Shown piece by piece: positions 5,177-43,926 of a stretch of DNA of 64,000 nt. The translations under genes were made by a program, and so were the position numbers. The notes under the pieces were generated by a model that saw only the letters and a list, made by a program, of their open reading frames with translations, did not search any database and was not told the DNA's origin. Within the stretch, counting starts at the first letter, position 1. Each line of letters begins with the position of its first letter. This DNA comes from a virus, in UHGV virus genome UHGV-0120889. The stretch is one strand, 5' to 3'.

Positions 5177-6553
5177 TTATTCAGTCATTGCAACAGCATT
5201 GGTGGATTTAGAACCAACTTTGTCCAGAAGGACGTTGATCCGGATACGAACGAAGTGCAGGGCGTTGTTATACACCAGTTCTACTTTCACACCTTCCAGA
5301 ACACGAGCAGCCAACTGATTGGTTGGAATCTCTGCACGTTTAGGAACTGTGATGATCGGGTCGTAGAACACATTGTTGTCTTCGTCAAAACCTGTCAGGA
5401 TCGCACCATTCTTAATGCCAGTGTTGATTGGGTTGTTCATCAGGACAGACTTGATAACCGGAAGATCATCATCAGACATCTTCATGCTTAAACCCATGTT
5501 GGAGCGACGATGCATGTACCCAAACATAGATTCTTCAGATCTGAACTTGATCCAGTGTGCAAAACGAATAGCGTCTGCATACTGACCTGAAGCACACTTA
5601 CCTTCCCAGAAAGCGCCAACACCGTTAATCATTCTGTAGAAGTTAACGTGGTTTTCCCAAATAGCCATACGCTGAGTTAAAGTCAGAGACGGTGCAATCA
5701 CACCTGGCATCTGTTTTAAGTGCAAGCTGTCGCCGTAGGACGGATCGTTGGATGCCATAGCACCTATGATACCACCCTCCGGGAAGTCCTTATCTGCACG
5801 AGGATCGTACATGCCAACACTGTCATATTGTGCAGCTTTCAGTTTGGTAGCGATGTTACTATCTTTGCCAGTCACATCTTCTGCAGTAGAGTAGACGTGC
5901 AGCTTGTAGTTGGCCTGAGCCCACTTAGCACATGCTTCAATGTCGGTGTGGTCTTCATGGCACAGGAAGTACCAATTGTCCCGCTCAGCATTGATCTTAT
6001 CAACTACTGTAGAAGGTTTTTCAGCATTGGCGATATTTTTAATTGTATAGTTACCAGTATGATAACCTACAGTGCAGTCACCAGTGATGGTGATAACACC
6101 GTCTTCAGCCGCTACAGTAATATCGTCCAAGTTATCATCTGCTTCGATTTTAGTCTTCATGGACTCTGCGATCTGAGTTGCAGCTGTCCCACCAGAGATA
6201 GGAACTATCAAAGAGGTATTGTAGCCACCTTTTGCAATAGTCATTACTACATCGGTATCAGCTGCGGCAGCAATACCTTTAAAATCTACAGTGGTTTTTT
6301 CTTTGGCCTGTCTGCCGATCATAACATATTGTGGAGGGAATACACCACCAAAAGCTTTTGCTGCAAACTCATACGCTGCAGAGCCTTGTGCGAAACCATC
6401 TTCCACCATCTGATCCAGCTCCGCATATACGCGAGCTCGCTCAGTAAAGTTGTTGTGGATAGCGATGAACAGGGGAGTTTCGAAACCTACAGTGTCAATA
6501 GGTTGGGTTCCGAGGTTAACTGTAACATCTACCACTTTATCTAAATATGGCAT
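5177..6553 (-). CDS. tail sheath protein (458 aa)
   Basis: Size and position upstream of tube gene; large ORF with no antisense competition; call by synteny. Confidence 0.6.
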   Translation of the reverse strand: MPYLDKVVDVTVNLGTQPIDTVGFETPLFIAIHNNFTERARVYAELDQMVEDGFAQGSAAYEFAAKAFGGVFPPQYVMIGRQAKEKTTVDFKGIAAAADTDVVMTIAKGGYNTSLIVPISGGTAATQIAESMKTKIEADDNLDDITVAAEDGVITITGDCTVGYHTGNYTIKNIANAEKPSTVVDKINAERDNWYFLCHEDHTDIEACAKWAQANYKLHVYSTAEDVTGKDSNIATKLKAAQYDSVGMYDPRADKDFPEGGIIGAMASNDPSYGDSLHLKQMPGVIAPSLTLTQRMAIWENHVNFYRMINGVGAFWEGKCASGQYADAIRFAHWIKFRSEESMFGYMHRRSNMGLSMKMSDDDLPVIKSVLMNNPINTGIKNGAILTGFDEDNNVFYDPIITVPKRAEIPTNQLAARVLEGVKVELVYNNALHFVRIRINVLLDKVGSKSTNAVAMTE

Positions 6554-14308: not shown

Positions 14309-15397
14309 TTAGATAAAACGCTTGAACATAGAAGGTGATGAGATTGATGGAATCACACAAGGAAGTGCTACTTCCTCTTTCTCCAGGAAATTAATAGCAG
14401 AAGCTACACAGTCAGCCCAGTCGTCTTTTCTGTTAAATGTTGATCTTTCCCCGTTGAATTTTTCAAGTTCAGTCAGAAATGCTTCCAGAGTATCAGGATG
14501 GAAACTGGATTTTACAATCCTCACCATTCCTTGTTGGGCAAGATTGGCAAAAGGTGAGAACCTTGTCAGTTTAGATTTGTTGGAAGGCATTGGGTCTTCT
14601 TCAACCCTAAACCCTTCGGCAAGCAAGGATCTGGAGGAGGTTAAGAACTCACTCTTACCTGCCTGACCGGGGTCCACAGAGAATACGATTATACAATCAT
14701 CACCATCAAACTGCGCCTGTTTCCTGATGATCACATCTCGTTCACCAGCCTTTTTACAGAACTTGCCTTCTAGACCTGTGGAATACCTCCCGTCATCCAC
14801 GTTCTCAGGACAATAATCACCGGACAGGTAATAAAAGCCGTCGCTATCTTTACTTACCTTAACACTGGCGGTAAAGTCAGGAAATTTATTACCGGAAGTT
14901 CTCTCGGTTCCTGCCTTATCCCATGCCCTGCAAGATACTGATCCAAGGGGTACTCTATCGGCATCACGAAGGAAAGATCTTTGAAAATAGTTTGCGCCCT
15001 CAGGCTTTGCAAACCAGTTACCATGAAGAAGCTGAGCTTTTTCCAGTTCCGGCAGACCTTCAAGGAAAGCAAGGTATTCTGGGTTGTCTCTTAAGCAAAC
15101 AGGATTATCGAATATTGTTGCGCCTATAAACGAGAATGACAACGGTCTTGGCTTGATCTCCACACCAAGTCCGTTAACCGTGGTGTATTTCTCTATCAAC
15201 TCTTCTTTAGAGTCCCCCCAGATAAATTCACCGTCGCGTCGGATAAAATATCTTTTCTTACCGCATTTCTCCGGATCTGGATACCCTTCATCGTCCAACC
15301 ACCACCTAACCAGTTTGGCAAGCATGTGTTCTGAATCGGGGTTACAGCTGATAACCATTCTTGATGGATACTTTGACTGAGATCGCAGACGAGACAT
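14309..15397 (-). CDS. terminase large subunit, C-terminal (nuclease) segment; 5' boundary approximate (exon 2)
   Basis: Same strand, immediately downstream of the ATPase segment after a ~340 bp ORF-less gap; frame open upstream of first Met to 15433. Confidence 0.75.
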   Translation of the reverse strand: MSRLRSQSKYPSRMVISCNPDSEHMLAKLVRWWLDDEGYPDPEKCGKKRYFIRRDGEFIWGDSKEELIEKYTTVNGLGVEIKPRPLSFSFIGATIFDNPVCLRDNPEYLAFLEGLPELEKAQLLHGNWFAKPEGANYFQRSFLRDADRVPLGSVSCRAWDKAGTERTSGNKFPDFTASVKVSKDSDGFYYLSGDYCPENVDDGRYSTGLEGKFCKKAGERDVIIRKQAQFDGDDCIIVFSVDPGQAGKSEFLTSSRSLLAEGFRVEEDPMPSNKSKLTRFSPFANLAQQGMVRIVKSSFHPDTLEAFLTELEKFNGERSTFNRKDDWADCVASAINFLEKEEVALPCVIPSISSPSMFKRFI

Positions 15398-15746
15398 CAG
15401 ATAGTCTATCTGCTCCCATTCGAATTGTGTCGTTTATGTTCGGGCAAGGTCGCTAGTCTTGCCCCGCCATTTTCAGGCAGCTGCATGTCTCCATGCAGAC
15501 CAGACTATATCTTATAAGCGACAACAACCGCTTATCCTCCCGTTTCGAATCGCTTGATTCTACGTCTTTCGACTAGTCGTTGAACGTTCATCCTCTCGGA
15601 TGCTTCGCTGCGGATTATCTAAATTAACACACTGTTACCATACCTTCGATCTCTCTTCGAAGCCTCTATCATGTTACCATGACAGGTTGGTGGTATTAAT
15701 AGTAAAGATTTCCCCGCAATTAGGGAGGTTTTACGAGAGCTACAAA
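15398..15746 (-). other. ORF-less intervening sequence inside terminase large subunit gene (putative self-splicing intron)
   Basis: No ORF in any frame; multiple perfect hairpins (CTGCATG/CATGCAG, CTTCGA/TCGAAG, GGGCAAG/CTTGCCC); separates Walker-A/B ATPase part from C-terminal part. Confidence 0.5.
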
Positions 15747-16175
15747 TTAACCCTCATCGAAGCAAACCATGGTGTACTCAAGCCCTTGATGGTTAAGCTT
15801 ATCTTGTACATACTCCATGTGGCAGTATTTTACAACAGCTCCCTTTTTGCTTCTATCCCACTTGCCAGTGTTCGGATCAAACCGTGGAAAAATGAACTTA
15901 TGATCCTTCTCTCTGAACTTTGGCTTAATGTTTTCAGGCAGATCACTATAAATAGCTACCGCTTTAGGCCATAGTCCACCCTCACCTTCCAACTGCGGGG
16001 TTGTTCTTCGGAACATAACCACAGAGCTGTGGGGGTCATCAATAATTTTAAGTGGCATCAATTGCAAGAGGAACGACTTGCCAGACCCTGCGGCACCGCC
16101 GATTACCAAAATATCTGCATCGTTTTCGAGGATCATCTTCTGCTTTTCAGAACACGGTCCGTAAATCTTAGACAT
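15747..16175 (-). CDS. terminase large subunit, N-terminal ATPase segment (exon 1; 3' boundary approximate)
   Basis: Walker A VIGGAAGSGKSF and Walker B-like VCFDE motifs characteristic of large terminase ATPase domain. Confidence 0.8.
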   Translation of the reverse strand: MSKIYGPCSEKQKMILENDADILVIGGAAGSGKSFLLQLMPLKIIDDPHSSVVMFRRTTPQLEGEGGLWPKAVAIYSDLPENIKPKFREKDHKFIFPRFDPNTGKWDRSKKGAVVKYCHMEYVQDKLNHQGLEYTMVCFDEG

Positions 16176-17366: not shown

Positions 17367-17441
17367 TGGTGGCCCTGGGTGGAATTGAACCACCGTCTGG
17401 CGATTATGAGTCGCTTGCTTGAACCTTCCAGCTACAGGGCC
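17367..17441 (-). tRNA. tRNA-Met (anticodon CAU; could be Ile-lysidine type)
   Basis: Acceptor GGCCCTG/CAGGGCC, anticodon loop CUCAUAA, T-loop TTCAATT, encoded CCA. Confidence 0.8.
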
Positions 17442-17518: not shown

Positions 17519-17524
17519 AAAAAA

Positions 17525-17623
17525 GGTGCTAGGTGATGGAATCGAACCACCTATGTATTCAACGACTACCTCGTCTATTTTCAGGATTAAAAATCCTCGC
17601 CCTTGCCAAAGGGCTTACCTAGC
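17525..17623 (-). tRNA. atypical tRNA-like gene (possible anticodon UUU; ~30-nt extra arm)
   Basis: Acceptor GCTAGGT/ACCTAGC, D-arm GCCC..GGGC, T-arm GGTGG-TTCGATT-CCATC present, but 99 nt long with oversized variable region and no encoded terminal A. Confidence 0.3.
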
Positions 17624-17721
17624 TCAGTATGTTGACCATGTTGCTAGTCGGCGATGACGACTGTAACATTTGATAATCCGGTTCTGCTTCCGGCTTTCGC
17701 TTAATTACAAGGTCAACAATA

Positions 17722-18150: not shown

Positions 18151-18179
18151 ATATTACACTGTTAAGCAAAGTTTGTCAA
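18151..18179 (-). promoter_or_regulatory. sigma70-type promoter for tRNA cluster
   Basis: Minus strand TTGACA (18179..18174) - 17 bp - TAATAT (18156..18151), just upstream of first tRNA. Confidence 0.6.
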
Positions 18180-21037: not shown

Positions 21038-21592
21038 TTACTCCACGCTGTCAATAGCAAGACTCATTGCAATACGGTATGCCTCTTCTAATGGTAAGAG
21101 TCTCCCCCACACATCCCAACCGACATCAAACTGCCTGCCAAACAACTGCTGTGTGGTTCCGTGAGCATGACCGAACAGTTGGACCGATCCGTGAGGCTTT
21201 CTGTTCCACTTTGCAAACTGGTAATGGCTCATACAGATCAAATTCTTGTTGTGGCGAAGCTCGTAATAATCTACAACCTCATGACCGAACTCTTTCATAA
21301 TTCTGACAGTCGTCCTTGTGTCATGGTTACCACGAACAAGAATAATATGTCCGTTCAACATATTTAGAACATCTGGGAGCAATTTGTTAATATTCTTATC
21401 ATTAGTGCACGCAATATCTCCTAAGTGAAACACAGTGTCTGCAGGTGACACAACAGAGTTCCACTTGGTGATGATCCCCGCATTCATACTGTCAAGATTG
21501 TGATCATACTGAGATCTGTGTTTTTGACATGAGTCAAACTCCATGACCCGCTGGTGGAGAAAGTGTGTGTCGCTTGTTACAAAGTATTTCAT
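21038..21592 (-). CDS. calcineurin-like metallophosphoesterase (putative polynucleotide 2',3'/3'-phosphatase)
   Basis: Metallophosphatase motifs VTSDTHF, HLGDIA, VRGNHD, GHAHG; start at internal ATG 21592 with GAGGAA RBS. Confidence 0.65.
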   Translation of the reverse strand: MKYFVTSDTHFLHQRVMEFDSCQKHRSQYDHNLDSMNAGIITKWNSVVSPADTVFHLGDIACTNDKNINKLLPDVLNMLNGHIILVRGNHDTRTTVRIMKEFGHEVVDYYELRHNKNLICMSHYQFAKWNRKPHGSVQLFGHAHGTTQQLFGRQFDVGWDVWGRLLPLEEAYRIAMSLAIDSVE

Positions 21593-21599
21593 ACATTCC

Positions 21600-22010
21600 T
21601 CATTTAAGTTTAATGCAGTTTTTAAGCTGGCGTTCCATACGATCCACAACCCTGTCTGGAACATCATGAATGCTTTTACTACCATGGCGGTTTTCAACCA
21701 CGATTACGGTATAACTATACCCATGACTGATCGCCATGTCAATATATTCTTGCACATATTTTTCTTTTGTAAATGTATTACTTACCACGATACGGTCGTA
21801 TCCCATACGCATCATATCTTCTACGTTATCTTTGCACCATTTTGCTGCAAGTGTTACTTTACTTGCATCCCAGTTGTAATTTCCATCATCGTCGTACCAG
21901 AACATGTCGTTCTCAAAATGTGGATACAGACCTTCTAAAGATAGCGCACTTGCCAGTGTTGATTTGCCAGACCCTGGTAGACCACGCACGATATATAGCA
22001 TTTTAGACAT
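21600..22010 (-). CDS. P-loop polynucleotide 5'-kinase-like protein
   Basis: Walker A GLPGSGKST, VVSNTF and ENRHGSKS...R motifs resembling Pnk kinase domains; ATG 22010 with GGAGG RBS. Confidence 0.55.
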   Translation of the reverse strand: MSKMLYIVRGLPGSGKSTLASALSLEGLYPHFENDMFWYDDDGNYNWDASKVTLAAKWCKDNVEDMMRMGYDRIVVSNTFTKEKYVQEYIDMAISHGYSYTVIVVENRHGSKSIHDVPDRVVDRMERQLKNCIKLK

Positions 22011-22110
22011 AGTAATCCTCCGTTTTAATTTCAACGATAGTATACCTAACTGTTTTGTTAATTTCAAGTGTTGACACTAGGTTATTTGTGTGGCAGGATA
22101 GACTGACAAA

Positions 22111-23046
22111 ATGACAAATGAGGAACGTATGATGAAGTATTTTAATGCAGACGACCTAGTTGACAAAGGTCTTGTAACCAGCAGATATCACCCAGACCTT
22201 GGGTTAAAGATCTATAAATATGCCAGAAAAGTATTCTACAACAACTTATGGCATTTGTCTCCTCGATTACTGGAGTGCCGAGGCATTGTTGTCGGTAATG
22301 AAGGAAATGTTGTGGCATGGCCCTTTACAAAAGTGTTTAACTTGGGAGAAAACTCCACCAACCTGCCTGACAATAAGCTTGTGACGGCGGTAGAGAAAAA
22401 GAACGGATTCCTTGGTGTGGTGTCATCTCATAAAGGTGAACTATTGTTCTCAACAACCGGGTCTCTTGATTCTCCATATTGTAACCTTGCAAAGGAAACC
22501 ATCCAGGAGCAATGTGGTAATTTAGATCTTATCAAGAAGGTTATGGGCAATGAAAATATGACATTCATGTTTGAAATTTGTCACCCATCAGATCCGCATA
22601 TTGTTCAGGAAGATCATGGCGCATATTTGATAGGTTGCAGATATAATGATTCTGGAATAATGCTACCAGAAGCAGCTTTAGATTGGATTGCCAAATACCT
22701 TGGTGCAAAACGTCCTCACACTGTGCGTGAAATTCCGTTCAGTTATGCAAAAGAATTAGCTGCAGAAACAAGAGGTGAAGGGTATATGATTCGTAAGCCT
22801 TACTACCCTTATGATCTGCAGCTGAAGATTAAGTCTCCATACTATCTGGCACAGAAGGCCGTAATGAGGGGTAAAGCTTGGAAGATTTGGGATGATGATA
22901 TCTTTAAACGTGTTGACGAAGAGTTTTACGGCATGGTAAACTTCATTCGTAACAACTACACAGAGGATGTATGGAACTGCCTCCTGGAGCAGGAACGCCG
23001 TGAGATACTCGATTACTATTTCCACAACGAGAACTATATGCAATGA
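22111..23046 (+). CDS. RNA ligase, Rnl1-like nucleotidyltransferase
   Basis: Motif I KKNGF (lysine ~97), motif IV EGYMIRK, motif V LKIKSPYY; divergent from kinase/phosphatase genes. Confidence 0.6.
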   Translation: MTNEERMMKYFNADDLVDKGLVTSRYHPDLGLKIYKYARKVFYNNLWHLSPRLLECRGIVVGNEGNVVAWPFTKVFNLGENSTNLPDNKLVTAVEKKNGFLGVVSSHKGELLFSTTGSLDSPYCNLAKETIQEQCGNLDLIKKVMGNENMTFMFEICHPSDPHIVQEDHGAYLIGCRYNDSGIMLPEAALDWIAKYLGAKRPHTVREIPFSYAKELAAETRGEGYMIRKPYYPYDLQLKIKSPYYLAQKAVMRGKAWKIWDDDIFKRVDEEFYGMVNFIRNNYTEDVWNCLLEQERREILDYYFHNENYMQ

Positions 23047-23393
23047 AGAAGTTGATTGTGTGGCTAGATGACTTGAGAGATCCGTCAAAGTACGGGCTCC
23101 AAGACGCTGTTTGGCTAAAGAATTCCTCCGAGTTTATAGATTTTATTAACGATAATAGAAAGCTCTACAGACGCGTTTCTGAGTGGCATATGGACAACGA
23201 CCTTGGAGAGGTATTCGAAGGGTACGATTGCCTATCTATGTTGGAGGAAAAATTTGTATTTGGTAAGCCTCCTGTAGTTGACAACGTGAAGATTTTCGTG
23301 CATACTTCTAACCCATCAGCGGCTCGTAAATTCATGCTTGCAGCTGACTCGTTTAAAAAGTTTGGAATAGAGATTAAACAAAACATCTACTGA
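23043..23393 (+). CDS. hypothetical protein (116 aa)
   Basis: ORF track; overlaps ligase stop. Confidence 0.45.
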   Translation: MKKLIVWLDDLRDPSKYGLQDAVWLKNSSEFIDFINDNRKLYRRVSEWHMDNDLGEVFEGYDCLSMLEEKFVFGKPPVVDNVKIFVHTSNPSAARKFMLAADSFKKFGIEIKQNIY

Positions 23394-23401
23394 GGACACT
23401 T

Positions 23402-24163
23402 ATGCGACGACTGATTATTATCTCCGGTGCTGGTTTGAGCGCTGAATCTGGTATTCCCACTTTCCGATCTGGTAGCACTGCAATGTGGGAGAATTTCAGC
23501 ATCGATGAGGTGTGCAACATCCACACCTTTGCCAAGAACTACTATAAGGTGCATGACTTTTACAATGCACGTCGTGTAGCTTTAGGCAGTGTTGAGCCTA
23601 ACCTTGCACATCTTCGGATCGCTGAGTGGTATTCCCGCTGGTCTGGTCGTGTGATCAACCTTACCACCAATGTAGATGATTTGCTGGAGCGTGCTGGTGT
23701 AAAACATGAAGATATTTTACATGTCCACGGGTATTTGCCAGAAATAGTCTATGAGGACGATGAAGGAAGTGACGTCATTAAGGACATTGGATACTCTGAG
23801 GTAGACGCAGGAAAGTATACCTGGGTTAAGCCTAATGTGGTGTTCTTCGGAGAAGTAGCTCCGAAGTATACAGACATGTATGACCTGTTGACTTCTCTTA
23901 CGAGCAATGATATGGTTATCCTTGTAGGGTGCTCCAACACAGTTATCAATTTTAACTGGGAGCTATTCCCTGCCTGCAATAAGGGAACCAAACTACTGAT
24001 CGTTAATAAATACGACTCACAGCATCTAGAGGAGAATGGCATTTCACGTAGTGATATTTACCAGTATGAGGATCGTGGCATCCCAGTTTGGTTTAACGGT
24101 GCGGTTGATGCCTTCTCTGATAAAACATTCATTGAGACTGTAGAAAACTTTATGGAACTTTAA
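23402..24163 (+). CDS. Sir2-family (sirtuin-like) NAD-dependent protein
   Basis: NAD-binding motif ISGAGLSAESGIPTFRS, catalytic HG (LHVHGYL), FFGE and LVGCS motifs; no CxxC zinc-ribbon pairs visible. Confidence 0.7.
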   Translation: MRRLIIISGAGLSAESGIPTFRSGSTAMWENFSIDEVCNIHTFAKNYYKVHDFYNARRVALGSVEPNLAHLRIAEWYSRWSGRVINLTTNVDDLLERAGVKHEDILHVHGYLPEIVYEDDEGSDVIKDIGYSEVDAGKYTWVKPNVVFFGEVAPKYTDMYDLLTSLTSNDMVILVGCSNTVINFNWELFPACNKGTKLLIVNKYDSQHLEENGISRSDIYQYEDRGIPVWFNGAVDAFSDKTFIETVENFMEL

Positions 24164-40730: not shown

Positions 40731-41009
40731 ATGAGCTGCGAAAAATCTTTTTTCATCATCATTTACGGTAAGGATAACTGCCCACATTGTGTCAGAGCAA
40801 AAGAATTTGCAATCAGCAAAGGTCTGCCTTTTGTATATAAGACACTTGGCGAGGGCTACACAAAAGAAGAGCTTATTGAGAAGTGCAGTCCAATCGTCCC
40901 CCGAACGTTGCCGCAGATCTTCTTAGAAAGCGATCTTGACAGTATCCATATAGGCGGTGCCGACGATTTCATCTCTTTTGTTAAGAATGGTTTTGGAGAG
41001 AAAAAGTGA
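40731..41009 (+). CDS. glutaredoxin/NrdH-like redoxin
   Basis: CPHC active-site motif in 92-aa protein between nrdB and nrdD. Confidence 0.65.
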   Translation: MSCEKSFFIIIYGKDNCPHCVRAKEFAISKGLPFVYKTLGEGYTKEELIEKCSPIVPRTLPQIFLESDLDSIHIGGADDFISFVKNGFGEKK

Positions 41010-41869
41010 AAGTTGTAAAACGGGACGGTAGAGAAGAGTTCTATAACGGAATTAAGGTGATCAAGGCGGCAGAGTCCGCCTTACTTGAGTCTGGACATAC
41101 TGAAGAAGAAGCTTACCGGATCGCTTGTGCGGTTAATGAAGTTGTTGCTAACAATCTGCCAACCGACCAGTGCACGATCTCTGTAAAAAATATCCATATC
41201 CTTGTTGAAGATGCTCTTATGGATATGGGTTTAAAATGTGCAGCCAGAGAATACATCCAGTATAGACAGACAAGAGATAATAACAGAGAGGCAGGTGGAA
41301 AACTACTTGCAGATATTAGTGGCTTCTTGGATCGAACTTGTGATGAATTTACAAAAGAAAACGCAAATAAGCCCACTAATCATGTACACACTCATCGTGA
41401 CCTGCTTGCAGGCATCCTTAGCAAACACCTTGCATCAACACAGATCCTGCCAGACCGTGTTTCAGAAGAGCACAATAAAGGCTTCATCCATGTGCATGAT
41501 CTTGACTACTTGATCAGTCCGTTAACAAACTGTTGTTTGGTAAATTATCCAGATATGTTGGAAAACGGATTCAACATTGGCAACGCCCATGTCAGTAAGC
41601 CGAAGTCAATAGGGGTTGCAACAACAATCCTTAGTCAAATCTCTAGCGCGGTAGCTAGTGCTCAATATGGTGGTCAGACTATGAGCCATATTGATCATTA
41701 TCTGGCACAGTATGCTGAAGCAACCTATGAGAAGAACCTTAAATTTTGCCAGGAACATTGGTTGCCGGATGCTGAAACTGTTGCAATGCAAATGACAGAT
41801 AAAGATGTATTTGACAGCATGCAGACTTTGCTCTATCAAATCAATACGTTAACCTCTGTCAACGGTTAA
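41006..41869 (+). CDS. nrdD: anaerobic ribonucleoside-triphosphate reductase NrdD, exon 1 (3' boundary approximate)
   Basis: ATP-cone start MKVVKRDGREE, IHVHDLD and NCCL motifs; ORF ends where intron-like sequence begins. Confidence 0.7.
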   Translation: MKVVKRDGREEFYNGIKVIKAAESALLESGHTEEEAYRIACAVNEVVANNLPTDQCTISVKNIHILVEDALMDMGLKCAAREYIQYRQTRDNNREAGGKLLADISGFLDRTCDEFTKENANKPTNHVHTHRDLLAGILSKHLASTQILPDRVSEEHNKGFIHVHDLDYLISPLTNCCLVNYPDMLENGFNIGNAHVSKPKSIGVATTILSQISSAVASAQYGGQTMSHIDHYLAQYAEATYEKNLKFCQEHWLPDAETVAMQMTDKDVFDSMQTLLYQINTLTSVNG

Positions 41870-42717
41870 CAAACTGGCCGTTGTAAAACTCTCCTAACCT
41901 CATAAGAGGGGTCGGTAAATCCGGCTAACGGGGAACGCTAAGGCGAAAGCTATGCCAATCCCGTGACTAGTTCTTACAGGAGTTGGAACGGTTGTAACGA
42001 CTAACGAAAGGCAGAGATGCTTGACAAACATTTCTGAACCAAGTAGTGTAGGGGTTAGTTGAAATACTAACTTCGAAATGGAGAGGCTCTATGAAAAAGA
42101 TCATTCTTAATGGTGAAGAATCGAACTATGTGATTGATGAGGTTGGAAACGTATACGGAAAACGTGGAATGCTACACCCAATATTGTGGGGAGGTTATGG
42201 AAAAGGTAACAAGCATGTTAAACGCCGTTATATGTACTCTTTCAACCACAAAGGTAAAAAGATTCGAATCCAAACCTCAAGGGTTGTTGCCTTGTATTGT
42301 TTGCCAGATGTCCCAGAAGACCCTGAAAACTGGGAAGTGAATCATAAAGATGGCAATACATTGAATGATCATCCGTCTAACCTAGAGTGGGTTTTGCCGG
42401 AAGATAATAAGAGACATGCTTTCCGAACAGGACTTTGTCCAGGTAAGTGCTATAGGAAAGTGCAGGCATACAAAGGGAAAATCTTGGTGGGTGAATATCC
42501 TTCACTCTATGCCTGTGCAAAAGCCTTAAATTTGAACGTAGGTAACGTTCACAGGGCTATCGAAGGAAATGCCGAAGGTAAGCATCTCACAATAAAGGGT
42601 TATTATCTTATTGAAGTAGAGTAAGAGATAGTCTGGCCCTGTGGAAACACAGGGAGGAGACAGCAGACTCCATTCATCACATTAAGTTTAGGACTAGATA
42701 CCTCGGTCTTTGGTAGA
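41870..42717 (+). mobile_element. putative group I intron in nrdD carrying an HNH homing endonuclease gene (boundaries approximate)
   Basis: ~850 bp interrupts nrdD between N- and C-terminal halves; contains free-standing HNH ORF; flanking non-coding parts are structured. Confidence 0.55.
42091..42624 (+). CDS. HNH homing endonuclease (intron-encoded)
   Basis: Classic HNH motif EVNHKDGNTLNDHPSNLEWV; located inside nrdD intervening sequence. Confidence 0.75.
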   Translation: MKKIILNGEESNYVIDEVGNVYGKRGMLHPILWGGYGKGNKHVKRRYMYSFNHKGKKIRIQTSRVVALYCLPDVPEDPENWEVNHKDGNTLNDHPSNLEWVLPEDNKRHAFRTGLCPGKCYRKVQAYKGKILVGEYPSLYACAKALNLNVGNVHRAIEGNAEGKHLTIKGYYLIEVE

Positions 42718-43926
42718 ATGATTACCAAAAACTACTTGAAAGTCCACAAAATGGGTCTTGGTGAAGAACGTATCACACCTGTGTTCCCTAAAGTGCTGTT
42801 CTTCCTGGAAGAGGGTGTCAACATGAACCCTGGGGATCCTAACTATGATTTGAAACGATTAGCTCTGGAATGCTGTGCAGAACGTATCTATCCTGACTTC
42901 GTATCTGTACCACTAAATAGAAAAGTGACAGGCTCGACAGATGGCAAAGTAACTAGCATGGGTTGCAGGAGTTTTCTTAGCAAATACAATGACTTGGAAA
43001 CAGGCGAGGAGAAATACCTTGGCAGATTTAACTTAGGCGTTGTTAGCCTTAACCTGCCAATGATTGCGGCAAAAGCTAAAACGGAAGGTGTTGATTTCTT
43101 TGCAGTTCTTGACGAATACCTGGATCTTGCATACGAGGCTCACCTTGTAAGGGTTAATCGTCTAAAAGGGACAAAGGCAGGGCAGAACCCTATCATGTGG
43201 TGTGAAGGCGCTCTTGCTCGCCTGGACCCTGAAGAGAGTATTGATAAACTCTTCTATGACGGGTACGCTTCCATCAGTATTGGGTATATTGGTGTGTATG
43301 AAACCTGTCAGATTTTGGGCAGAGAGGGTGACAAGGCTTTAGCTCTTGGAATCCTTCAGCACATGAGAGATGCTTGTGAGCGACACAAGAAGGAAAGTAG
43401 ACTAGCGTTTAGCTTGTACGGCACCCCTTCTGAGAGTCTATGCTATAAAGCTGCAACCTGTCTGGATCGTGAATATCCTGAAGTGTTGAAGCACGAGCAT
43501 GAATATCTCACCAACAGTTTCCATCAGCCAGTATGGATCAATAGCTCTCCTTTTGATAAGTGGGAGTATGAGGAAGGTTTTGCTATGATCTCCTCTGGTG
43601 GCAACATCGGATACGTAGAGACACCAAATCTGAAAAACAACTTAGATGCTTTGGAAGCTCTTGTTGATTTCGGATATAAACACATTATGTATTTTGGTAT
43701 TAACCAACCTGTGGATAAATGTCTCAAGTGTGGTTTCTCTGGTGAGTTCAGTGCAACAGCTAAAGGCTTTGTATGCCCAGAGTGTGGAAACCATGAAGAG
43801 GGAACGATCAGTGTAATTCGACGTGTGTCTGGATACCTTTCCAGTCCTAACTCCCGTCCTTACAATAAAGGTAAGCAAGCGGAAGTTATCGAGCGAGTTA
43901 AGCACTACGGAAGTTGTGGTTGCTGA
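42718..43926 (+). CDS. nrdD: NrdD exon 2 (5' boundary approximate; frame open from 42625)
   Basis: C-terminal zinc ribbon CLKCGFSG...CPECGN and glycyl-radical motif RRVSGYL. Confidence 0.7.
   Translation: MITKNYLKVHKMGLGEERITPVFPKVLFFLEEGVNMNPGDPNYDLKRLALECCAERIYPDFVSVPLNRKVTGSTDGKVTSMGCRSFLSKYNDLETGEEKYLGRFNLGVVSLNLPMIAAKAKTEGVDFFAVLDEYLDLAYEAHLVRVNRLKGTKAGQNPIMWCEGALARLDPEESIDKLFYDGYASISIGYIGVYETCQILGREGDKALALGILQHMRDACERHKKESRLAFSLYGTPSESLCYKAATCLDREYPEVLKHEHEYLTNSFHQPVWINSSPFDKWEYEEGFAMISSGGNIGYVETPNLKNNLDALEALVDFGYKHIMYFGINQPVDKCLKCGFSGEFSATAKGFVCPECGNHEEGTISVIRRVSGYLSSPNSRPYNKGKQAEVIERVKHYGSCGC

Follow-up and report, generated by a model that had tools for sequence, protein, structure and literature searches.

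A conserved tRNA-like RNA with a changing anticodon-like loop in Vequintavirinae phages

The stretch of DNA analyzed here, 64,000 nucleotides (nt) of UHGV virus genome UHGV-0120889 (the window), comes from an rV5-like Vequintavirus, and its cluster of transfer RNA (tRNA) genes includes a 99-nt tRNA-like gene, at exactly 17525-17623 on the minus strand, whose product we call X RNA (5' end at 17623). Judged from covariation among related phages, X RNA is a real, evolutionarily maintained and selected member of the tRNA superfamily, with a predicted L shape. It is a new structural variant within that superfamily, which annotators have seen and which has had no characterization; we found no paper describing it in the literature on rV5 and Vequintavirinae tRNAs, on PVP-SE1, on phage tRNAs versus anticodon nucleases, or on allo-tRNAs. 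It has long been asked why phages carry tRNA genes, and recent work shows that some of these serve to outlast immunity based on tRNA cleavage. The X RNA family, whose "anticodon" has been rewritten several times on a fixed body in phages that also encode RNA heal-and-seal enzymes, provides a test case for whether phages make non-decoding tRNA mimics, for how far the tRNA core may depart from the standard, and for the mislabeling of such genes in annotation. The BASEL collection and therapeutic cocktails both contain rV5-like phages.

Fold, covariation and anatomy of X RNA

ARAGORN calls a 99-nt "tRNA-???" at 17525-17623, with no amino acid assigned, and the Rfam tRNA model (RF00005) matches 17527-17623 on the minus strand at 35.5 bits (gathering score 29, E=3.7e-5). 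The Rfam alignment has a 7-base-pair (bp) acceptor stem, a D arm, an anticodon loop UUUUUAA (anticodon UUU) and a canonical T arm, together with a 4-bp anticodon stem (model position 27 is deleted) and an insertion of about 30 nt ahead of the T stem. A five-arm cloverleaf is also the unconstrained minimum-energy fold (-34.2 kcal/mol, z = -3.66), equaled by none of 200 shuffles. The first-pass annotation, made from the sequence alone, had described an atypical 99-nt tRNA-like gene at this place without giving its strand; all of the anatomy it listed (acceptor stem, D arm, T arm, 4-bp anticodon stem, extra arm of about 30 nt with its own hairpin, no encoded terminal A) holds, and the UUU it proposed as a possible anticodon is the best-supported reading of the loop in view of the Rfam alignment. 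ARAGORN, which that annotation had suggested as a check, does call the gene, but in an alternative register with a four-base anticodon "atcc" at position 37; we reject this fold because its register takes up UCC, the covariation-backed 3' strand of the anticodon stem.

Covariation was assessed on an alignment of 18 distinct X RNA sequences, on which 21 specified pairs were counted. All 21 are standard pairs in 100% of the alignment cells, and nine have changed on both sides (three in the acceptor stem, three in the D stem, one each in the anticodon and T stems, and one tertiary pair). The covariation score is 0.405, against a mean of 0.152 for column shuffles (0 of 500 reach the observed value) and at most 0.098 when the registers are slid by one to three columns. 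The tertiary change tells the most: G19 of the D loop becomes U in precisely the six of 18 sequences in which C56 of the T loop becomes A, so that G19:C56 is replaced by U19:A56 and the tRNA elbow is maintained. The extra hairpin of the variable region ranges from 4 to 8 bp, with sequences unrelated from genus to genus, yet is predicted at the same place in nearly every member, and shows compensatory changes within subgroups (e.g. ACGA/UCGU versus ACGG/CCGU). Substitutions within the rV5 clade either keep pairing (G.U to G-C, U-A to U.G) or fall in the extra-arm loop, at position 9 or in the 3' tail, and none is seen within that clade in the anticodon loop or in the linkers described below. 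Covariation in the stems and in the tertiary pair means that X RNA is not a decaying pseudogene, and the earlier suggestion of a degenerate tRNA gives way to a fold under clear purifying selection across genera.

Parts of X RNA finer than the Rfam alignment were read from the sequence, the minimum-energy fold and the family comparison. From the 5' end, the acceptor strand GCUAGGU (17617-17623) pairs with ACCUAGC (17528-17534); all seven pairs are formed in every one of the 18 sequences, and 3:70, 4:69 and 6:67 have changed on both sides. A8 and A9 follow (17615-17616), and then the D arm (17599-17614), with stem GCCC/GGGC, loop UUUGGCAA and both G18 and G19; three of its four stem pairs covary. 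G26 (17598) is invariant in the family alignment. The anticodon-like arm (17583-17597) has the 4-bp stem AGGA/UCCU, in which 27:43 covaries between A-U and G-C, and the 7-nt loop UUUUUAA with U33 and A37; the putative anticodon UUU (17589-17591; Lys, AAA/AAG) follows the Rfam alignment, and BASEL phage records annotate the gene as tRNA-Lys with codon AAA. The extra region of 31 nt is made up of a 7-nt 5' linker, GAAAAUA (17576-17582), a 15-nt hairpin, GACGA-GGUAG-UCGUU (17561-17575), and a 9-nt 3' linker, GAAUACAUA (17552-17560), containing the near-invariant AAUACAUA; both linkers are predicted to be single-stranded. In the T arm (17535-17551; stem GGUGG/CCAUC, loop UUCGAUU of the canonical T54-Psi55-C56 type) the five stem pairs are always formed and 51:63 covaries. 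The discriminator A73 and CC (17525-17527) complete the gene, and U6 (17519-17524) separates it from the first base of tRNA-Thr. Since U6 comes directly after CC in ...ACCUAGC-A-CC, the terminal A of CCA is not encoded; all six neighboring tRNAs encode CCA, as do most X RNA relatives outside the rV5 lineage.

The acceptor stem, T stem and elbow are those of an ordinary tRNA (7-bp acceptor stem, 5-bp T stem, G18 G19, 19:56 pair), with the pairs formed in 18 of 18 sequences; other parts of the molecule depart from the standard. The near-universal base at tRNA position 8 is U, and U8-A14 in canonical tRNA is a reverse-Hoogsteen pair; all X RNA variants have A8 and U14. The D loop always begins with UU and ends with AA, and the D stem can therefore extend to 6 bp with a tetraloop (in the window through possible U14-A21 and U15-A20 pairs around UGGC). 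Minimum-energy folds of all members draw this 6-bp stem and the Rfam tRNA-Sec model aligns the relatives likewise, at positions that never vary and so give no covariation evidence. Where a canonical anticodon arm has a 5-bp stem, a 7-nt loop, U33 and a purine at 37, the stem of X RNA has 4 bp; in Seunavirus and Mydovirus copies a fifth pair is possible only with a 6-nt loop. The canonical variable region is 4-5 nt in class I tRNAs, or an arm joined directly to the core in class II; that of X RNA, at 31 nt, is neither. The earlier description of a tRNA with an insertion is a fair one as to form, but the extra region is an old conserved part of the family and not a recent insertion.

Throughout the family two linkers hold the extra hairpin: on its 5' side some 7 nt, GAAAA followed by two bases that vary, and on its 3' side some 9 nt, R-AAUACAUA. 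Of the variants listed, only L077 lacks GAAAA; it has GUAAAA, and its 3' linker is CAUACAUA. The linkers are thus conserved at the level of sequence, while all helices are free to covary; this invariance is partly by construction, as several retrieval scans used the linker motif, although all members derived by blastn keep the linker nonetheless. We considered the invariant linker as an antisense regulator and rejected the idea, as no complementary site beyond chance occurs within the window.

Orthologues from outside the rV5 lineage score below threshold with both the Rfam tRNA and tRNA-Sec models; tRNA-Sec (RF01852) is their best match, but at 27-38 bits versus a gathering score of 47. We rejected membership in the tRNA-Sec family, the scores being sub-threshold and no better than those of ordinary class II tRNAs, and the window copy having UUU and a 4-bp anticodon stem. 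As for the bacterial class II tRNAs (Leu, Ser, Tyr), the window copy has anticodon UUU and discriminator A, and no member of the family has G73.

Distribution of the family and its anticodon-like loops

In its tRNA region the window is 100% identical to Escherichia phage slur16 and matches dozens of other records at 98-99.7%, and blastn finds close copies of X RNA in more than 100 rV5-like genomes. Diverged copies, also found by blastn, occur in Avunavirus (Av-05, 93% identical), Seunavirus, Mydovirus and Henunavirus. With further members gathered by pattern scans of viral and metagenomic contigs, the family stands at 30 distinct variants: 29 sequences and L077, found only by a 5'-half pattern that also recovered 13 known members, all of them, L077 included, keeping AUACAUAGG. 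The identified carriers are without exception Vequintavirinae phages or phage-like contigs, most of the metagenomic matches being on contigs as large as a phage genome. A search for the core motif in 185,579 bacterial and archaeal species, each represented by one genome, gave no match. In some uncultured relatives, the 12-13 kb around X RNA contain a single other tRNA. Public labels for the gene are inconsistent, ranging over tRNA-???(atcc), tRNA-Lys, tRNA-OTHER, tRNA-Pseudo, tRNA-TERM or suppressor, and none at all. As an aside to these searches, about 18 "Campylobacter phage" records (MG0656xx series) are 98-99.5% identical to the E. coli rV5-like tRNA cluster of the window and are probably contamination or records with mis-assigned hosts.

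The anticodon-like loop differs between lineages. The rV5 type has UUUUUAA with A73, and Avunavirus has UUUAUAA with U73 or C73. Henunavirus and many uncultured relatives have YAUCAAA or AAUCAAG with U73, annotated as an opal suppressor, and Seunavirus and Mydovirus have C-CAUCCA-G, C-CAGCCA-G, C-CCUCCA-G, C-CUUCCA-G or C-CCUCAA-G with U73 (C73 in one case). The anticodons are accordingly UUU in rV5, UAU in Avunavirus, UCA in Henunavirus, and UCC or GCC, in irregular loops, in Seunavirus and Mydovirus. U33 occurs only in the rV5 type, the Av-05 type and one other variant; the rV5 and Av-05 loops are canonical (UU-NNN-AA). Positions 34-37 (UCAA or UCCA) are conserved within clades. Because the loop changes by lineage, "tRNA-Lys" describes a lineage-specific state, and the Lys-type anticodon pointed out in the first-pass annotation is right for the rV5 lineage but does not extend to the orthologues. 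Because the anticodon is not kept and U33 is mostly absent, the function of the family as a whole is probably not ordinary decoding.

The identity set of E. coli lysyl-tRNA synthetase (LysRS) is the UUU anticodon plus A73, and the window copy has U34, U35, U36 and A73; A73 is found in the rV5 lineage only, that is, only where the anticodon is UUU, and the relatives have U73 or, rarely, C73. Six of the seven bases in the loop UUUUUAA are those of the host tRNA-Lys loop CUUUUAA (host sequence as quoted in PMC11464382), and all of the anticodon-stem pairs differ from host tRNA-Lys. ARAGORN finds no second tRNA-Lys in the window.

Candidate functions

PrrC, a tRNA-Lys anticodon nuclease, targets host tRNA-Lys(UUU), and phage T4 counters it with a heal-and-seal toolkit of the kind encoded in the window. 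The AriB protein of the PARIS system reads and cuts the anticodon stem of host tRNA-Lys(UUU), and a variant tRNA-Lys of phage T5 escapes it through anticodon-stem changes (PMC11464382); a bacterial Schlafen protein likewise cleaves tRNA-Lys(UUU) (PMC13056530). For the rV5 lineage the reading we favor, though at somewhat less than even confidence and from sequence features, is that X RNA may be a specialized tRNA-Lys-like molecule in a conflict over host tRNA-Lys, serving either as a nuclease-proof surrogate decoder or as a look-alike that occupies tRNA-Lys-directed enzymes. Its transcription, together with the six ordinary tRNAs, would start at the putative promoter upstream of tRNA-Arg; RNase P and 3' exonucleases would be expected to cut X RNA out, given its canonical acceptor/T-arm half, and the host's CCA-adding enzyme would turn ...ACC into ...ACCA. 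In the rV5 lineage the chassis of the family (A8/U14, extendable D stem, 4-bp anticodon stem, linker-tethered hairpin) bears the canonical-looking Lys loop UU-UUU-AA and has its discriminator switched to A73. As a surrogate decoder it should be missed by nucleases that read the stem, because every anticodon-stem pair differs from host tRNA-Lys; as a decoy it would titrate tRNA-Lys-directed enzymes. Either way it would complement the phage's own heal-and-seal RNA repair genes.

X RNA resembles canonical phage tRNA-Lys(UUU), such as that of T5 (PMC11464382), in its 7-bp acceptor stem, 5-bp T stem, UUCGAUU loop, G18 G19 and 19:56 pair, and resembles phage tRNA-Lys(UUU) further in its 7-nt loop with U33, UUU and A37, in A73, in its place in a phage tRNA operon, and in an anticodon stem unlike that of host tRNA-Lys. 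It is unlike canonical tRNA-Lys in A8/U14, the 4-bp anticodon stem, the 31-nt variable region with its tethered hairpin, the incomplete CCA, and the fact that its orthologues are without a Lys anticodon. One apparent objection to a PARIS-proof tRNA-Lys was discarded: the PARIS-sensitive phage LF82_P8 would count against it if rV5-like, but is a Mosigvirus (T4-like), and its PARIS data are therefore irrelevant to X RNA.

Several observations do weigh against a tRNA-Lys surrogate or decoy. The orthologues do not keep UUU, having UAU, UCA, UCC or GCC instead; they mostly are without U33, and their loops are of 7 or 8 nt, or of 6 nt if the fifth stem pair forms. Seunavirus and Mydovirus phages that carry X RNA also have a canonical tRNA-Gly(UCC) and tRNA-Lys(UUU/CUU). 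The Av-05 copy (UAU) resembles no E. coli tRNA, E. coli reading AUA with a lysidine-modified CAU tRNA, and so fits the decoy poorly. To our knowledge, no bacterial elongator tRNA has an anticodon stem of only 4 bp, an extra region of 31 nt that includes long single-stranded linkers, or A8/U14, and these features make function on the ribosome doubtful. The near-invariant linkers have no role in the surrogate or decoy explanation. Finally, in Escherichia phage V18 (L031, ~546-640) a natural deletion fuses the 5' part of tRNA-Tyr to the 3' part of X RNA (…AAATCTATTG joined to GTCGTTGAATACATAGG…), removing the 3' half of tRNA-Tyr, tRNA-Ser, the spacer motif described below and the 5' half of X RNA, from which it follows that X RNA is dispensable, at least in laboratory culture.

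The main alternative, possible though doubtful, is that the whole family consists of non-decoding tRNA mimics, whose activity would lie in the acceptor/T-arm/elbow half and in the near-invariant single-stranded linkers, for example as a platform or a competitive inhibitor for a tRNA-binding protein of the host or the phage (candidate partners being nucleases, toxins of the nucleotidyltransferase or acetyltransferase kind, and enzymes of processing or modification). The Lys-like loop of rV5 would then be one state of a loop that tracks its partner and not a codon. This would account for a body conserved while the loop and extra hairpin change, for positions 34-37 being conserved within clades although U33 is missing in most lineages, and for GAAAA and AAUACAUA being kept in sequence where helices covary; it also suits the coexistence of X RNA with canonical tRNA-Gly and tRNA-Lys in tRNA-rich relatives, and its presence in the uncultured relatives that have one other tRNA in the flanking 12-13 kb. 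A pure mimic, however, needs neither the perfectly canonical loops of rV5 and Av-05 nor the association of A73 with UUU, and the linker invariance on which the argument leans comes in part from the retrieval pattern.

Precedents for tRNA-shaped RNAs outside translation differ from X RNA in several respects. The phage T4 tRNA cluster encodes stable RNAs C and D (species 1 and 2), small tRNA-like or non-tRNA molecules that are co-transcribed and co-processed with the tRNAs, and whose function was long unexplained. No Tequatrovirus record matched X RNA by blastn, and X RNA is for that reason not similar to the T4 stable RNAs; unlike RNAs C and D it has a complete cloverleaf. Like regulatory pseudo-tRNAs (Bacillus cereus tRNA-Other, PMC3399842) and mimics such as YrlA, X RNA is tRNA-shaped and may act outside translation; unlike them it keeps an anticodon-like arm and the NCCA end, and it shares no homology with them. 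The Rfam YrlA model gives a single match in the region, at 25 bits versus a gathering score of 69, and this lies on other tRNAs and not on X RNA.

There is also a wider proposal, which we consider rather unlikely: the X RNAs may be phage tRNA mimics of a class not described before, with a true elbow and acceptor end and a re-engineered core (A8/U14, long D stem, short anticodon stem, hairpin on invariant A-rich linkers), in which the loop would be re-targeted between lineages (Lys-like, Ile-like, opal/Sec-like, Gly-like) to neutralize or evade tRNA-directed host immunity. If true, X RNA would be an RNA-based anti-defense factor and not a component of translation.

Recoding after the fashion of allo-tRNAs is improbable. 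Here the long extra arm together with U73 or A73 would direct charging by the seryl- or leucyl-tRNA synthetase (SerRS, LeuRS) irrespective of anticodon, placing the wrong amino acid at Lys codons in this phage and at Gly codons or UGA in its relatives. The family resembles tRNA-Sec and allo-tRNAs (Mukai et al. 2017, PMC5389517) in its long extra arm, in a D arm that could be drawn with a long stem and a tetraloop, in the U73 of most members, and in diverse anticodons that include UCA. Such features served Mukai et al. as an argument for the Ser identity of allo-tRNAs (PMC5389517), and the Henunavirus copies are annotated as opal suppressors. The acceptor/T combination of X RNA, however, is 7/5, with covariation in both stems, and not 8/5, 8/4 or 9/3, and position 8 cannot pair with 65. 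Its anticodon stem is shorter (4 bp) and not longer, and its extra hairpin is set apart from the core by conserved single-stranded linkers of 7 and 9 nt, unlike the arm of class II tRNAs. The family, moreover, is found only in lytic enterobacterial phages, and proteome-wide mistranslation of Lys as Ser or Leu would harm the phage. UGA recoding or read-through by the UCA type was examined in 50 kb of Erwinia phage pEp_SNUABM_01 and rejected, as there is neither avoidance of TGA (the stop of 17 of 47 long open reading frames, versus 14 of 57 in the window) nor an excess of long in-frame extensions.

It is less probable still that X RNA is a processing or termination element, its fold being either just a cut site for RNase P and RNase Z or, with U6, an intrinsic terminator or attenuator in the tRNA operon. 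The gene does lie inside the operon with U6 following, and an alternative 8-bp hairpin at 17530-17553 with the U-run was flagged as terminator-like. Ordinary neighboring tRNAs already supply processing sites, however; only the rV5 lineage has the U tract and the alternative hairpin (copies in Av-05 and other genera have unrelated sequence after CCA), and such a role would not account for the conservation of the D arm, the elbow pair, the linkers and the anticodon-like arm. The alternative pairing itself is simple to describe: over 17519-17553 (minus strand), UAGGUG of the 3' linker and T stem can pair with CACCUA of the acceptor 3' strand, after which the sequence reads GCACC-U6.

A degenerate pseudogene, a former tRNA inactivated by insertion and carried passively in the cluster, would fit the pseudo or OTHER label in some records, the lack of an amino acid assignable by ARAGORN, and the viability of V18 after losing X RNA. 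Covariation largely refutes this reading, and we give it very little credence: pairing is 100% and nine pairs, the tertiary pair among them, have changed on both sides across five genera, the extra hairpin stays a hairpin despite complete turnover of its sequence, and CCA is encoded in most lineages. A quadruplet-decoding (frameshift) tRNA with anticodon AUCC, as the ARAGORN call repeated in the slur16 and slur12 GenBank records would have it, is scarcely credible, since that register consumes the 3' strand of the covarying anticodon stem, ARAGORN does not call the homologues present in Av-05 and NINP13076, and the fold of the Rfam model differs.

Genomic setting and neighboring features

The cluster on the minus strand runs, by ARAGORN, tRNA-Arg(UCU), Tyr(GUA), Ser(UGA), a 98-nt spacer, X RNA, Thr(UGU), Met/Ile(CAU) and Pro(UGG), and the rV5 lineage thus keeps X RNA in a cluster with just six other tRNAs. 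The other anticodons mostly read A-ending codons (UGG, UGU, UGA, UCU). A consensus scan places a putative sigma-70-like promoter, TTGACA-17-TAATAT, upstream of tRNA-Arg (18151-18179, minus strand). The tRNA with anticodon CAU (17367-17441, minus strand) is tRNA-Met in ARAGORN and slur16, and tRNA-Ile (codon AUA, lysidine type) in BASEL records.

About 3.5 kb from X RNA lies the RNA repair cassette that the first-pass annotation had noted in the window, and its genes are indeed found at 21038-23393. The wider repair-type cluster (21038-24163) comprises a calcineurin-type metallophosphoesterase (21038-21697) and an AAA_33 P-loop kinase (21600-22067) on the minus strand, and an Rnl1-family RNA ligase (22111-23046) and a protein with the cyclic-phosphate-processing domain cREC_REC (23043-23393) on the plus strand, followed by a Sir2-family protein (23402-24163, plus strand).

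The 98-nt spacer between tRNA-Ser(UGA) and X RNA (17624-17721) contains a conserved two-hairpin motif of about 66 nt (17640-17706, minus strand), reading AAUUAAGCGAA..CCGG-AAGCAGAA-CCGG..CAAAUG.UACAG-(U/G)CG-UCAUCGC-CG(A/C), with a compensatory change in its second hairpin. The motif matches no Rfam family and is 83-88% identical to phage lambda 44866-44952 (the late leader, between orf-64 and S) and P7 72367-72432. It lies just 3' of tRNA-Ser(UGA) in both rV5 and P7, the tRNA-Ser of P7 being unannotated.

Other oddities were met in X RNA-bearing phages. In KB57-like Mydovirus contigs (L039:5383-5457 and L032:2598-2672), a second unusual gene between tRNA-Thr and X RNA is called by ARAGORN as "tRNA-??? 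(ga)"; its stem, GUCCC/GGGAC, has 5 bp and its loop, ACGAUA, 6 nt. X RNA may not be the only non-canonical tRNA-like RNA in these phages. Erwinia phage pEp_SNUABM_01 (L066) encodes a "prolyl-tRNA synthetase"-like protein (296-826, 176 amino acids) and a "putative (p)ppGpp synthase" (5254-5760, 168 amino acids), both under their depositors' names only; proteins of both kinds can act on tRNA. Elsewhere in the window, annotation splits the terminase large subunit in two over 14309-16175 (14309-15325 and 15747-16175 in slur16 locus coordinates, which are close to those of the window), and the anaerobic ribonucleotide reductase at 40998-43918 (slur16 coordinates, a few bases below those of the window) is in two pieces with an HNH homing endonuclease gene between them. 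These split genes suggest intron, intein or homing-endonuclease insertions.

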